DNA from: Blastocystis sp. subtype 4
Lineage: Eukaryota
Reading direction: 5' to 3'
Length of the DNA: 32,766 bases
Assembly: GCF_000743755.1 (NCBI RefSeq)
Contig: NW_014569443.1
Coordinates: 1-32,766 of the forward strand
A program made the position numbers and the translations under genes. How positions within the stretch are numbered: the stretch's first letter is position 1; each line of letters starts with the position of its first letter. Below the pieces are notes generated by a model, which saw only the letters and a list, made by a program, of their open reading frames with translations, did no database searches and was not told where the DNA came from. Below are positions 2,345 to 28,611 of this stretch, piece by piece.

Positions 2345-3490
2345 AAAGAGAAGTATATATGTTCTCTTCCGCTCCTTGAGAGATAAAACCAGTGGTCCAT
2401 TTCTTCTCTCGCTCAGCTCCAGTGAATCGCTTGAACTTATAGATACCCAACAGAATAAGACGGAAAAGATTTGTAATTATCATTGCAGGAATGACGAACA
2501 AGACGGAGGCGAAAACGTTATTATGTGGTCCCATACTACAACTCGTGAGAGCGACTCCCCATGTGTCTACATCACAATAGATATGAGGGTCACCTCGTTT
2601 TATATGTCGAATGGCTCTAGAAGCAATATCAGCAGGAGAGAAGAGTGATTCCAGATAGTGTTCCACGAAAAGTCCTTCTTCGGGTTTCGTTTCATTTTCT
2701 TTCTTGAGACAAGGTGTATCCATATTGGGTGGATAGATACAACCAACCTGGATATTGTTGCGATGTAATTCTAACCGCAAGCCATCTGCCAGTCCTTTTA
2801 CAGCATATTTACTTGGAGCATAGGCTATGTAGCCTGTATAGCTAAGCATACTGCACGTACTACCCACCAAATACACTTCACCCTACTATTCATGATGATT
2901 GGCTCACGTACTCTCTTTCTCCGGATCATTTCTGGAACAATGGGGAAAAGTGTATTCACAACACCCATGTAATTAACATCAATGGAGGTTTCATAATCCT
3001 GAATTGTCTGCCCAAATGCATATCTGTCTATTAGGAACACTTTATAATCACATACCCCGTTTTAGCCATCCCAGCGTTACAAATGATGACATCGATAGTG
3101 CCGTTGTTTCGAACATCATTTACTATTGCATTCTGTATGTCTTCTTTGTTGCAAACATCAGCCACTGCAATATCAACGTGAGGAGTCATAACTCCTTTGC
3201 TCCTACAATAAGCATTTATCTCTTCTTTTGCTGTTTCCAGGAGCTTTATCTTTCGAGCAACAATTGTAACTTTGGCAGATTCAGCAGCAATCCGTTTGGC
3301 CAATTCAAGACCAAGTCCACTGGACCCACCTGTGATTACAACATGCTTTCCTGAAAATGAGTATCTCCAGGCTTTGACTCGATGAATGATTTCGGTGATC
3401 ACCAACCCAGTGACATCGAGTCCCAAGAGCCAAAGTACTAGTAATAAGTTGATAGAGATAGAGAGTACAGATTGTAGTTATTGTATCCAT
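2345..3490 (-). CDS. KDSR: Short-chain dehydrogenase, 3-ketodihydrosphingosine reductase (KDSR/TSC10)-like; stop predicted to be created by polyadenylation at T2345
   Basis: N-terminal TM; HVVITGGSSGLG; CNAG; YxxSK (YAPSKYAVKGLADGLRLE); YPPNMDTP..KKENETKPEE; C-terminal TM segments. No in-frame stop until deep inside RPS15A; in-frame T 4 nt before TGTTTGTA. Confidence 0.88.
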
Positions 3491-3615
3491 CAGAAGAATC
3501 TGTGGATGGAATTCAGATTTGACAAGTCGTTGACAAATTGTTGACAAGAACTGATTTGACTCCTTTCAAGATAAGAATCCATGGATCTGTAAGTGATAAA
3601 TCAAAATCCACTTCT

Positions 3616-3623
3616 AACAAACA
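3616..3623 (-). terminator. TGTTTGTT poly(A) element of CDPK (about 10-nt 3'UTR)
   Basis: AACAAACA on + strand, 14 nt past the stop. Confidence 0.75.
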
Positions 3624-3637
3624 ATCTACACTAGAAC

Positions 3638-5842
3638 TCACTGACTTGGAACTGACATCTGACTAGAAAGCTGATCCACACCCTGTAGTGCTTGACACCT
3701 CTTATGTACTTCCTCATCGGAAACAGACGATTCCACCTTCACAGGTGTTTCTCCACTTTGATCTGTCGTACTAACACGACTAAACAAAGTGGTCACTTTT
3801 TTATAATCCTCTTCATCCTCTACATCGCTTGTCATCTGCTGTTTCACTAACTCTTCAGCACGATTCGCAGTAATCATTTTGGTATTCATAATCAACTCTA
3901 AATCGATCTCAGTTAGCTTCGTTTTGAGTTCTCCAAAAGTCTGCATGATGCAAGCTTTAATCTCATCAACCTATCCATTAGTCACCATCTAATCTCCAAC
4001 AGAAATTTCCTCACCAAAGAAGAGATGCAAGTCTTCAATCGCAATAAACCCATCATGTTCTCGATCAATCCTACACTTCTACCCAATCCGATTTCCTACA
4101 ATTTGAAGATTAACTCAGCGTATTCTCGTCGTAGTCCCTCTTTACGCGCTAAGCAGGCAGCCAGGAACTCTGAATAGTTAATACTTCCCCGTCTTTCAAA
4201 GTCCAGCGAATCAAACAAATCTCGAAGCTTCTTCTCATCCATCGTAATCACAAATAGATCCTTGTTATTGCAGAAAGTCTCTGTCGTTCGTAGCGACATC
4301 AAAGCATCTCGGAACTAATCTCGATCTCATTTCCCACACTTACTTCCTCAAAGGAGATTGAACCATCATCCTTCTTATCAAAATATTCAAAAGCATCACT
4401 CAATCGCATCAAATCATTCTACGTTATAATTAGTTTCCATTCCTACATTGTTCAGATGATAGGCAACAGCTGTTAAAGCAGCTTTCTTCAATCGATTGTA
4501 GTTTTGGAACTCCCGCATCGACGTCAAAATATTATCAGGTACTGACTCAATTGGAGTAATTACACTCTGCTGCATCCAAGGATGATTCTGTGCCTCAACC
4601 ACTACATTCTCATTGCAACATATCACACAAACCTGTCATTCGCTTGATTGGGTCAATAGCTAGCAAACCTTGCACAAAACTCTTGCTCTCAGGACTGAGA
4701 GACCCCCAGTATTCGTCTGGGAATGGGACATTATCGATGCGAAGTTTATCAAAGGGAAGATTGGCCATTTGAGGAGGAAGAGGATTGTGTCCTGTGAGAA
4801 GGAAGTATGTGATGATTCCAACAGACCACATATCGCATGACTTGTTGTAGCCAACACCTCTATAATTGTTCATGAACACTTCAGGAGCAATGTAATAACG
4901 CGTTCCAACGAGACTGTGCATATATTCAGAACCGCTCACAAACTAGTTGACATGTTTCTCTAATTCCTACTTTACTCAGACCAAAGTCAATGAGCTTGAT
5001 TTCAGCATCAGGAGTATTATCGGAAAACATGATATTTGCTAGTCTAGATATCACTATCCACAAATATAGCTCACTTTAGATCACGATGGGCAATATTTTT
5101 CGTCTCATGAAGATAACAGATGGCATTGAGAATGTCACGAAGAATCTTTCGGGTGTATTCTTCGGAGAATTTTCCTTCTACATCTAATCAAGCAGAATAA
5201 TGATGCAAACGAGGACTATGAACAAGTTTCGTATACAATTCTCCGCCTGATAATAGTTCCATAATTAAATATAACGTATTAGATGTCTGAAATATTTCAT
5301 ATAACTTTACAATATTAGGATGGTGCAATCGACCCAGAATCATGACCTCTTGCAAGAGTCGTTCTCGTTGCTGGAAATTATATCCCAATAGATTGATTGT
5401 CTTCATGGCAAATCGACCACCCGTTTTTCTAACTAACAGTTTTAGATCAATCCTACCGATTGATCATAACTCGAATTGGACCAGTAGCTCCAACACCTAA
5501 CACTTCTGAAGTAAAAGAATATACACTTTGAACAGGACTAGAAATGACACTAGCATGAAGTTTCAACTCTTGTCGATAAACAACATTTGACACACCTCGA
5601 AGATTATCATCGTCATCACTCTCGCTATCCTCCCCGAACAAATCATAGTTTGAATCTTCGCTCTCGGTTGACTTCTTTGCTGCCGATTTGACAGGAACAA
5701 CTTGCGAGGATTGATTCGCTCCAGATGTCGCTACAGCGTAAAAGCACGTGGATTGAGACCAACTACCAATCTCTGAATCACTAAATGAACTAACAGGAAT
5801 AATATCCGATTGTTCGCTTATACAACTACAACCAGCTCCCAT
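3638..5842 (-). CDS. Calcium-dependent protein kinase (Ser/Thr kinase plus EF-hands), N-terminal acylation motif
   Basis: MGAGCSC start; GVGATG, HRDLKLAN (after splicing), [21 protein letters not shown]; junction [14 protein letters not shown]-hand loops such as [14 protein letters not shown]. Confidence 0.93.
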
Positions 5843-27207: not shown

Positions 27208-27252
27208 TAAAGGGAAATGTGAGCAAAATGTAAATACCGTGGTTATTCACAA

Positions 27253-27260
27253 AACAAACA
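27253..27260 (-). terminator. TGTTTGTT poly(A) element of the SLC35B1-like gene
   Basis: Exact motif; T27265 is codon position 1. Confidence 0.8.
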
Positions 27261-27264
27261 ATCC

Positions 27265-28611
27265 AGTTTCCATGCGATTTCTTTCGGTTTCCATGCACTT
27301 TGTCGAACGAAATCCCGACAAAAACAAGAATAACTCCACACCACTACAAGTGAGTTACGAAACGAAGAATGACCTGATAAGGAGAAATGTAGTTTCCCAT
27401 GAACAAAACCGATAGAAGAATACTAAAAAACTTGCGAGTTGTGGTAATTGTTGATAGAACCAGGGGAGGAAAGTGACGTACTGTGTACAAGATAAAGAGT
27501 TGGCCAACAGAAGAACACAGCCCAAATTGGACTGCAAGCCACAGACACCTTCGATTTGTTAAGAAAAAGGAGACTCCTGGAACTAACTCTTTCAGGAGGA
27601 GAGAAGTGATCAGAGAGACTAGTATTCCATACACATTGAGCATTTGTTGAAGTCGAAGAGGAGACGGTTTGAATCGAGGAACCACTACATCCTGCTGCAT
27701 TCCACAGACACCATCCATACACAAAGAGAGGAAGAGAAGAATCAATCCAAACGTGCTATTGGATGCTGTGCTGTTCTTTTTGGATTTAGAAAAGAGTTGA
27801 AAAACTATGGATTGTCAATGAGACAAAACCAGACCCACAATTCCTGCAGTCATGAGAAATACCGAAATGTACTTTTGAATCGAATAGCGACGAGCTACAT
27901 GTTAAGAGCCAACGAAGAGTCCACTTCCAAAAAGAGTACCAGCAACAAGAACTGGAATCATTTTGCACGATTTAGCTAATACCTGCGTTGGATAATTCAC
28001 ATGTTTGAGCGAATTGTTGGAAAAGATCATGGCAAGGGTATAGCAAATACCATAAGTAGCATAATCTGATAGATGGTCATCTACAAACGACACTTCCTAT
28101 AGAATAAAACAGACAGAGAATGGAAACAGCCGAATCTCGGATCACCCGTTCCAAAATCTCTCCACTAGGTAGCTCAAAGGCCACTCGAGCAGTAGCTCCA
28201 TCAACGGAAATGTCTCGAATAATGCACGTTTCTCTATAATGATAGTAAAAAACCAATTGAACCCCTCTTTTCGATTTCGTAAAGTCACTTTCCGACCCAC
28301 AAGGTCGGCTTTCGGAATTTGAATATCAAATGACTTCTTTCGCTGATCAAAGAAGAAAGAACCTTAATATAAAACTGAATAAAATCGAATCGTACCGATA
28401 GAAGCAATGATGAGGTTAATCGAGCATTGGAGAAGTAAAAGTACGGAGGTATAGGTGAATCGACTACCATCGGGACTAACATAACGATATCTAGGAGATG
28501 AAGAAGAAAGCTAAGGCTGGACATTCTCTCCTGAACAAGTCCATAATTCAAGTAGACAGAATAGATACCGACAATGGATATTAGGAGTCGTTTATAGTAT
28601 TGATAGTCCAT
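27265..28611 (-). CDS. SLC35B1: UAA-family nucleotide-sugar / ER ATP-ADP transporter, SLC35B1/HUT1-like, with an inserted soluble domain; poly(A)-created stop at T27265
   Basis: GIYSVYLNYGLVQE, SLKHVNYPTQVLAKSCKMIPVL, LSLCMDGVCGMQQ, GQLFILYTV..ITTTRKFFSILLS, ends GNRKKSHGN. Confidence 0.9.

Follow-up and report, generated by a model that had tools for sequence, protein, structure and literature searches.

Several genes in the window (the whole stretch of 32,766 nucleotides of Blastocystis sp. subtype 4 analyzed here) have reading frames that run past the point where their homologues end, which raises the question of where their stop codons come from. Stops created by poly(A) have been published for Blastocystis (Klimes 2014, PMC4159000; Gentekaki 2017, PMC5608401; Lind 2025, PMC12129017), under a rule that covers ST7, ST1, and ST4 and with a share of 15% in ST7 and 26% in ST1. 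For ST4, the mechanism was only inferred in 2017 (PMC5608401), and the element was later reported there, with ST4 listed among the users (PMC12129017). An earlier note on this DNA had claimed that eight genes carry a T at codon position 1, then exactly 4 nt, then the octamer TGTTTGTT or a one-mismatch variant, and all these positions and frames were borne out: the arrangement is present at 8/8 listed gene ends (seven on the minus strand, that at 26068 on the plus strand), with an exact octamer at four of them and one mismatch at the others (Table 1). The T occupies codon position 1 in all eight according to the exon models and the open frame of the last exon, a frame based on RNA for RUVBL1 and the G-patch gene, on homology for KDSR, USP39, RhoGEF, and SLC35B1, and on the model only for the PTD-like and hypothetical genes.

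Table 1. Predicted and RNA-supported gene ends in the window, with the last intron of RUVBL1 (mismatches are relative to TGTTTGTT)
Feature	Positions	Strand	Cut base and spacer	Octamer	Basis	Remarks
RUVBL1, poly(A)-completed stop	12677..12689	-	T12689, CACT	TGTTTGTC (1 mismatch)	RNA	
RUVBL1, last intron	12781..12856	-				76 nt, ATATCCTT..TCCTTAAC..AG; U12-type signals, AT-AG ends
KDSR/TSC10-like, likely poly(A)-completed stop	2333..2345	-	T2345, CACA	TGTTTGTA (1 mismatch)		
USP39/Sad1, likely poly(A)-completed stop	15574..15586	-	T15586, CAAT	exact		
RhoGEF, likely poly(A)-completed stop	20307..20319	-	T20319, CCTA	exact		
SLC35B1-like, likely poly(A)-completed stop	27253..27265	-	T27265, GGAT	exact		
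G-patch, probable poly(A)-completed stop	26068..26080	+	T26068, GGAT	exact		
PTD/SCRE-like, probable poly(A)-completed stop	19462..19474	-	T19474, GCCT	TGTTTCTT (1 mismatch)		
Hypothetical gene, likely cleavage site	17519..17531	-	T17531, CATT	TGTTTCTT (1 mismatch)		weakest of the eight
MFS, control	7401..7426	+		7406-7413	RNA	poly(A)24 after 7401; genomic stop, 3'UTR
ARID, control	7401..7426	-		7421-7414, abuts MFS octamer	RNA	poly(T)22 after 7426; genomic stop, 3'UTR
RRS1, control	12665..12677	+		TGTTTGTG, overlaps RUVBL1 octamer by 1 nt	RNA	poly(A)21 loose end at 12665/6
Acyltransferase, control	26176..26188	-		TGTATGTT	RNA	poly(T)24 at 26188; genomic TAG, 28-nt 3'UTR
RPS15A-like, predicted site	2321..2333	+		TCTTTGTT, overlaps KDSR octamer by 1 nt	sequence	
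IPK	15538..15550	+			sequence	genomic TAA begins at predicted cleavage T (intermediate state)
PFKFB	30214..30226	+			sequence	genomic TAG begins at predicted cleavage T, would become UAA
RRM gene	23800..23812	-				TGA begins at predicted cleavage T under 29-nt last-intron model

The octamer is strongly concentrated at gene ends. The window holds 10 exact octamers, compared with 2.47 ± 1.54 in shuffled sequences (0/100 shuffles reach 10), and 9 exact T-N4-octamers, compared with 0.61 ± 0.79; each of these 9 is located at a gene end, and the 30.3 kb of gene bodies scanned hold no exact octamer. Over the final 115 codons of the 20 genes, 8 in-frame T-N4-octamers with at most one mismatch were seen versus ∼0.46 expected (Poisson p of ∼3e-8, roughly estimated from internal rates). 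The T at −5 is also a property of ordinary genes, since it precedes 9/9 exact motifs at gene ends, 5/9 of them in genes with genomic stops. One-mismatch octamers occur 25 times on the sense strand within gene bodies, with a T at −5 in 6/25. T9440 of the ARID gene is followed by the octamer of KDSR, TGTTTGTA, and sits in phase with the likely coding frame, and an RNA contig (7584-9693) runs across it. A motif with one mismatch is therefore not a sufficient signal by itself. In RRS1, such a motif at 12653 is passed over and the one at 12670 is used, as judged from the RNA contig end. No fallback motif with at most 2 mismatches was found up to 150 nt past the genomic stops of USP39, PTD-like, RhoGEF, and SLC35B1. 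A "backup stop" directly after the octamer was rejected, being present at 2/8 sites with a chance of ∼0.21 per site.

RUVBL1 answers the question directly. A spliced RNA contig has a 23-nt nontemplated poly(T) loose end at 12689, and the spliced frame closes as KDKYLS plus T. The frame of the last exon is fixed by the last intron, for which the RNA joint lies at 12779-12856 and whose 5' site is common to two relatives (L002 and L003). The RUVBL1 mRNA is thus cut after a lone in-frame U, with the stop completed by the poly(A) tail. Poly(A) starting right after the T, as the earlier note had predicted for every listed gene, was found at T12689, the sole listed site with a displayed RNA contig end; direct RNA evidence accordingly covers 1/8 sites, by one assembled contig from one run. 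Cleavage 4 nt before a GU-rich element with U plus AA as the stop, cited in that note as established for Blastocystis, is both published and seen here in RUVBL1. Homologues were said to finish at ..KDKYLS, and the same residue is indeed the end in 34/38 outgroups; genomic read-through would add 31 aa across the last exon of the convergent RRS1. The RUVBL1 end is the same in L001, an independent contig with 99.8% identity across 6.2 kb. The end reads T, GACG, TGTTTGTT in L003, i.e., a genomic TGA at the cut codon, and T, GGAA, TGAGTGTT in L002, so that the cut codon forms a series TGA/TGG/TCA among the orthologues; L004, being RUVBL2-like in its 3' half, was omitted from this comparison.

Other RNA 3' ends follow the same spacing. 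Poly(A)/(T) loose ends were found at 7401, 7426, 12666, 12689, and 26188 (RNA contigs, set X1), and cleavage and polyadenylation precede TGTTTGTT or a near match by 4 nt in 5/5 of the poly(A) junctions listed, a count that leaves aside 16 further RNA loose ends and in which a junction base A makes the site ambiguous by 1 nt. The four tails other than that of RUVBL1 belong to genes with 3'UTRs. Internal priming was rejected, since the genome behind all five sites is not A-rich. This RNA evidence consists of assembled contigs, which hide rare variants and minor isoforms. At 93% identity, X1 gave no contig between ∼14,300 and 23,950 and, among those listed, none extending to 2345, 26068, or 27265; a fraction of 0.61 of the words in 11900-20400 nevertheless occurs in X1, far more than these contigs account for, so that the gaps probably reflect filtering and are evidence neither for nor against. 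Sets X2 and X3 are unspliced where they cross introns (DNA-like), and X5 is nearly empty. RNA-supported introns in the window measure 28 to 34 nt and its GC content is 40.4%, like the published ST4 figures (∼30-nt introns, 39.4 to 39.6% GC); relatives with the same signal have 47 to 53% GC. Together with the enriched octamer and the U12-type intron, these features would fit a Blastocystis from the clade with the downstream element.

A C-terminus at the tail-made stop fits the homologues better than the read-through does for RUVBL1, USP39, KDSR, RhoGEF, and SLC35B1, the five genes whose ends agreed in the C-terminal alignments that had been proposed as a check. From sequence comparison, poly(A)-completed stops are likely in the last four. 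For USP39, 93/143 predicted homologues end within −3 to +5 of the site at which they had been said to finish (median, +3); 3/5 of the closest end at +0/+1, and 2/5 continue as SPVC and CFVC. Tails of at least 25 aa occur in 16/143 homologues, and when the last exon was searched against longer proteins with a cutoff of E<=1e-20, there were no matches. Read-through of USP39 would add 30 aa over the IPK gene end (tail peptide SIVCSAYIDR). The SLC35B1-like protein has 26 residues past its last intron, matching in length human W297-H322 and consistent with the claimed ending ..KKSHGN. Reading on would append 23 aa, in a tail that contains WIVCFVNNHGIY and overlaps the acyltransferase gene's candidate ATG. 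For KDSR, a tail of 114 aa (peptide SHVCNK) would result from read-through, running across the convergent RPS15A-like gene; the matching FT[ST][LV] motif is the end in 4/12 predicted orthologue ORFs that reach the C-terminus, and 6/12 continue as T-codon-x-V-C/G. The RhoGEF read-through is SYVC only (4 residues); 2/5 predicted-protein matches share the terminal R, and another continues as FYVC into the next gene.

The remaining three genes are weaker cases. Motif and position make the G-patch and PTD-like stops probable. The last intron of the G-patch gene is RNA confirmed, with the RNA contig ending at 26022; its read-through is WIVC only, the genomic TGA lies 4 codons on, and two 2-mismatch motifs follow it (26087 and 26107). 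The PTD-like gene, which is named only tentatively (Atlas SCRE, 0.89), would read through for 17 aa, across the following gene's candidate ATG (19452). In the hypothetical gene, T17531 is a likely cleavage site and would make a stop only if the predicted 30-nt intron at 17702-17731 is used; with no intron or a 29-nt intron, a genomic stop lies upstream of T17531 (17711 or 17682), and the gene may end there, ∼150 to 180 nt earlier. Its N-terminus is rhodanese-like (Rhodanese, E=0.0014, below the curated cutoff). PDB and Pfam searches with the last exons of these three genes gave nothing useful, and an Atlas search with the long exon of the hypothetical gene returned no name.

Individual genes among the seven other than RUVBL1 could therefore use a genomic stop, which would bring the share to ∼25 to 35%. 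The G-patch and RhoGEF proteins would then gain 4 residues each; translation of the hypothetical gene would end at 17711 or 17682, and T17531 would be the end of a conventional 3'UTR. The short tails of the first two, the downstream motifs of the G-patch gene, the other intron model of the hypothetical gene, and the skipping of one-mismatch motifs in ARID and RRS1 all speak for this. However, both the G-patch gene and RhoGEF have an exact motif, a form absent from gene bodies, RhoGEF orthologues finish at the same R, and the frame of the hypothetical gene is open for 82 codons, into which an intron of the modal 30 nt joins in frame. We regard this alternative as a real possibility at somewhat longer odds than even.

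It is far less probable that the long tails are real, i.e., that translation reads to the genomic stop via overlapping transcripts and that the motifs are due to chance or belong to the neighbor on the opposite strand. All eight frames continue uninterrupted as far as a genomic stop, long tails occur in some USP39 homologues, and public predicted proteins (P0016 and P0033) carry tails; but the direct poly(A) junction refutes this for RUVBL1, and the enrichment and position of the motif, the conserved C-termini, and the overlap of the tails with neighboring genes argue against it elsewhere. Errors in sequencing or assembly that removed the stops, or a changed genetic code that hides them, are scarcely credible and already refuted for RUVBL1, as L001 has the same RUVBL1 end, the RUVBL1 tail is nontemplated, the codons at the eight sites are varied and mostly ordinary sense codons (TCA at three sites and again within the TCAAT of USP39, TCC, TGC, and TGG at two), and other genes here are closed by TAA, TAG, and TGA.

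We thus estimate at about 93% the probability that the UAA of RUVBL1 is tail completed, with an element resembling UGUUUGUU 4 nt beyond the terminal U, and that likely another six or seven of the window's genes behave in the same way. At RUVBL1, the mRNA is cleaved at an in-frame U 4 nt upstream of this element, and the tail adds AA to the terminal U; at the seven other sites, the cut would be the same. The last two bases of an ancestral stop would then be free to mutate, because they fall in the discarded spacer. According to the literature, the octamer is a downstream element, which has been hypothesized to bind a short CstF-64 (Klimes 2014, PMC4159000), and in an ST7 reporter its mutation together with two upstream Ts decreased output 324-fold (PMC6395660). 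That relaxed selection loses stops once cleavage hits their first base is a published, little-tested idea (PMC12129017), to which the RUVBL1 orthologue series lends small comparative support. Across the window, 3/11 cut codons still spell a stop versus 2.3 expected by chance. In the RRM gene, other intron choices lead to earlier genomic stops, and the stop is genomic under either model.

As to how common such ends are, the earlier figure of roughly 40% holds as a count in this window (8/20 gene ends) but is compatible with the published 26% and not significantly above it (binomial p=0.12). The 20 include, as a genomic stop, an RCC1-like gene with only 2-mismatch motifs and no chosen 3'-end site, and leave out a putative small gene whose end lies near 10536.

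The mechanism does not differ from the published Blastocystis system, with which it shares the octamer, the 4-nt spacing, U plus AA, spurious annotation tails, and a side class with a genomic TAG or TGA starting at the cut; these particular gene ends may be listed here for the first time. In mammalian and some protist mitochondria, the tail likewise gives the last one or two A of UAA and there is no 3'UTR, but this is organellar processing, whereas Blastocystis uses nuclear cleavage and polyadenylation guided by a downstream GU element (PMC4159000). A nuclear stop is also made or changed by poly(A) in the PAY* Tyr-to-stop case and in mouse thymidylate synthase (UAG to UAA); those are alternative isoforms of genes that keep a genomic stop (PMC4159000), while here the tail-made stop is the only sensible end. 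The "dual use" stops of Giardia and Naegleria are similar in their compact genomes, the fusion of stop and 3' processing, and ultrashort 3'UTRs, but there an intact genomic stop overlaps an upstream hexamer, in contrast to the downstream signal and incomplete stop of Blastocystis (PMC11529991).

Octamers of opposite strands stand back to back in 3/6 convergent pairs (gaps of −1, 0, and −1; the remaining gaps are 23, 91, and 95), and in 2 of the 3 both signals are RNA verified. The RUVBL1/RRS1 octamers also abut in the diverged L002 (gap 0) and are 22 nt apart in L003. Tentatively, and against our own expectation, selection might keep a single 15- to 16-bp two-way 3'-end signal in such pairs (TGTTTGT-N-ACAAACA-like), with mRNA ends 23 to 24 nt apart. 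A hairpin role was rejected by eye, as the arms meet with a loop of 0 to 1 nt.

If the two-way signal is real, it would, with the TGA/TGG/TCA series, give a direct view of neutral stop decay in discarded spacer, and back-to-back signals, if general, would show the packing limit of convergent genes. The 2014 finding is confirmed here for an ST4-like genome, one gene being verified by RNA. Gene callers would add 4 to 114 spurious residues or create overlaps with neighbors; the earlier warning about ORF finders is matched by the tails in public predicted proteins, and C-terminal signals and proteomics databases are therefore corrupted for a very common gut protist.

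The eight sites proposed in the earlier note are all present as a T followed by 4 nt and then the GU-rich octamer TGTTTGTT with zero or one mismatch, seven of them on the minus strand (Table). The exact octamer occurs 10 times in the window against 2.47 expected (at least 10 in 0 of 100 shuffles), and nine copies follow T-N4, against 0.61 expected. Each of the nine is located at the 3' end of a gene, and no exact octamer was found inside the gene bodies (30.3 kb, delimited by hand). The tenth copy, at 10541-10548 (+), is the sole one without a T at -5 or an assigned gene; a candidate start codon (ATG at 10550) comes just after it, and it may mark the 3' end of an unannotated small gene on the plus strand (about 10180-10536). 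One-mismatch octamers occur 25 times within gene bodies on the sense strand, 6 of them with a T at -5. An RNA contig runs across ARID T9440, which precedes the KDSR variant TGTTTGTA and is likely in frame (the coding frame being assumed), and the RRS1 contig bypasses a one-mismatch motif 17 nt upstream of the one actually used. Because of these internal, spanned and skipped copies, one-mismatch sites require further evidence, which is available for RUVBL1 and KDSR and not for PTD-like or the hypothetical gene.

Coordinates of predicted cut sites, RNA tail junctions and adjoining octamers (window unless stated)
Feature	Position	Strand	Mismatches in TGTTTGTT after T-N4	Residues added by read-through	Non-templated tail
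KDSR	2345		1	114	
RUVBL1	12689	-	1	31	X1 contig
USP39	15586		0	30	
Hypothetical gene	17531	-	1	23	
PTD-like	19474		1	17	
RhoGEF	20319		0	4	
G-patch	26068	+	0	4	
SLC35B1-like	27265		0	23	
MFS	7401	+			X1 contig
ARID	7426	-			X1 contig
RRS1	12666	+			X1 contig
Acyltransferase	26188	-			X1 contig
Octamers, RPS15A/KDSR	2326-2340				
Octamers, MFS/ARID	7406-7421				
Octamers, RRS1/RUVBL1	12670-12684				
Octamers, RUVBL1 pair in L002	2267-2282				

Among the junctions listed in contigs assembled from the RNA run X1, all five tails start 4 nt upstream of a one-mismatch octamer, and the genomic sequence behind them is not A-rich. MFS, ARID, RRS1 and acyltransferase have a genomic stop and a 3'UTR of 14-66 nt. 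In RUVBL1, poly(A) begins right after the predicted T, in a contig that is also spliced over a 76-nt intron; the spliced frame reads ..ENKDKYLS plus T, without a genomic stop, and then the tail, giving UAA. The cut thus lies 4 nt before the octamer and the tail makes the stop, a reading to which we assign a probability of about 0.99; the evidence is a single contig of a single run, at the one site of the eight for which a contig end was listed, and minor longer isoforms may exist besides it.

The RUVBL1 end also agrees with its homologues, as had been claimed: in the outgroup comparison, with a last-exon match in 38 of 76 loci, 34 of the 38 end at exactly the same residue, 3 at -1 and 1 at +2. 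Three Blastocystis-like loci were compared at the cut codon. L001 (99.8% identical) has TCA, as in the window, L002 (47.7% GC) has TGG and an octamer with 2 mismatches, and L003 (50.8% GC) has a genomic TGA followed by an exact octamer at the same spacing. The last intron, 12781-12856 (-), carries a 5' site ATATCCTT and a branch site TCCTTAAC, U12-type signals by what we take to be the consensus, and ends AT-AG; it is RNA-confirmed in the window, and its 5' site is kept in L002 (2141-2180) and L003 (3039-3076). U12 introns are typically AT-AC (PMC5608401), and the text of that paper makes no mention of AT-AG introns. In a further related locus, L004 (1-1725), the 5' 1,338 nt are 97.8% identical to L002 RUVBL1 and the 3' half is RUVBL2-like, with the joint near the conserved GVLFIDE motif, probably an assembly chimera; the RUVBL2-like half ends in frame with T, GGAG and TGTTTGTT. 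In L001, the part matching window 8173-14350 (99.8%) is followed, at L001 1-3254, by genes other than those past 14350, including an IPK paralogue (65% identical) in place of the IPK-USP39 block. Either the two differ structurally or one of them is misassembled.

For USP39, KDSR, RhoGEF and SLC35B1-like, the orthologue ends are those of predicted proteins, DNA having been examined for RUVBL1 only. Among the listed USP39 representatives, 143 of 150 align through the last motif; 93 of the 143 terminate within -3 to +5 (median +3), in line with the proposed end, and 16 have tails of at least 25 residues. Three of the five closest homologues end at +0 or +1, and two continue with SPVC or CFVC, the signal translated in this phase. 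The KDSR C-terminus is reached by 12 of 17 matches: 4 terminate in FT[ST][LV] (YTSL in the window), 6 read on as T-codon-x-V-C/G and 2 are ambiguous. Two of the five RhoGEF matches stop at the same R as the window protein; a third carries SYVC, as in the window, a fourth reads FYVC and on through the following gene, and the last is fragmentary. In SLC35B1-like, the alignment of the last exon (26 residues) with the human protein begins at W297 and extends to the end of KKTSH, supporting the claimed end; H322 is presumably the natural human terminus. For G-patch, PTD-like and the hypothetical gene, PDB and Pfam searches with the last exons turned up no useful homologue.

In the hypothetical gene (17531-19452, -), the predicted cut T is in frame only if a predicted 30-nt intron is removed; if that intron is retained, or spliced as a 29-nt variant, a stop falls at 17711 or 17682. 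The first exon is rhodanese-like (Pfam E=0.0014, below cut-off). The second we take by eye to be a degenerate dual-specificity phosphatase (STYXL1/MKP-like), an identity unsupported by Pfam and Atlas. An internal T-N4-TGTTTGTG at 19084 straddles the predicted boundary of an exon and an intron.

Five read-through tails would extend over the coding end, or the candidate start, of an adjacent gene, and no octamer with up to 2 mismatches was found within 150 nt past the genomic stop of USP39, PTD-like, RhoGEF or SLC35B1-like. Under the proposed mechanism, cleavage 4 nt upstream of the octamer would leave an in-frame U that the tail's AA turns into UAA, as for RUVBL1, and the remaining seven sites would be cut likewise. 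Tail-made stops are very probable for USP39, SLC35B1-like, RhoGEF and KDSR, likely for G-patch and PTD-like, and modestly favored for the hypothetical gene.

This compact eukaryotic contig has a GC content (40.4%) and intron size (GT-AG, 28-34 nt, confirmed by spliced X1 contigs) that agree with published ST4 values (39.4-39.6% GC), suggesting an ST4-like subtype. Twenty genes have their 3' end here, the majority named by Pfam; RPS15A is a name we presume from its sequence, and PTD-like is an Atlas lead (SCRE, score 0.89). The intronless MFS transporter, 5941-7335 (+), has 464 aa; as annotated, the database member P0003 lacks 56 aa of this N-terminus. An open frame without introns at 30393-32766 (-), 790 aa or longer, contains 8 He_PIG Ig-like repeats and has a C-terminal hydrophobic stretch; it continues beyond the window and likely encodes a surface protein. 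A single X1 contig (24209-26022) covers the divergent RRM (-) and G-patch (+) along with the upstream sequence of about 100 nt that they share; their 5' ends may touch or overlap, which unstranded contigs cannot prove. At 19336-20600, X1 contigs match at an identity threshold of 88% but drop out at 93%, a hint that a diverged copy of this region (PTD-like or RhoGEF) may be expressed.

The octamers of facing genes are directly adjacent, or share 1 base, in three of six convergent pairs, placing the poly(A) sites 23-24 nt apart; in the other three they are 23, 91 and 95 nt apart. Those of the RUVBL1 pair also abut in L002. This adjacency has a post-hoc p of about 0.0001-0.003 under simple gap models, but it is accounted for equally well by packing down to a physical minimum and by a shared element. 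By keyword, it goes unmentioned in the main text of both PMC5608401 and PMC12129017 and in one supplement of PMC4159000, and a wider search, in a literature with few subscription journals, gave no Blastocystis paper among the 20 listed of 52 matches.

The earlier note's figure of roughly 40% holds as a count here (8 of 20 genes) but is no significant excess over the 26% with tail-made stops in ST1, which are inferred for ST4 (PMC5608401; binomial p=0.12). Against 15% in ST7, a possible underestimate according to Gentekaki et al. (PMC5608401), p is 0.006. A genomic stop begins at the predicted cut in IPK (TAA), PFKFB (TAG) and probably RRM (TGA), so that, with the eight, 11 of 20 genes would be without a 3'UTR. 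In ST7, the octamer lies at this distance in about 96% of 2,419 sites and is hypothesized to recruit a short CstF-64 (PMC4159000). The usual tail-attachment base is U (PMC4360255), and a reporter fell 324-fold when the octamer was mutated together with two upstream Ts (PMC6395660). The element is found in ST1, ST3 and ST4 and missing from tortoise strains (PMC12129017). The mechanism is already described for Blastocystis; the observation in the earlier note is real, its reading largely right, and the window sites are further members, to which octamer adjacency in convergent pairs is possibly a small addition. Stops may be lost through relaxed selection: of the 11 codons at the predicted cut, 3 remain stops where base composition predicts 2.3, which, for a small sample, is as expected if the two bases in the discarded spacer decay freely.
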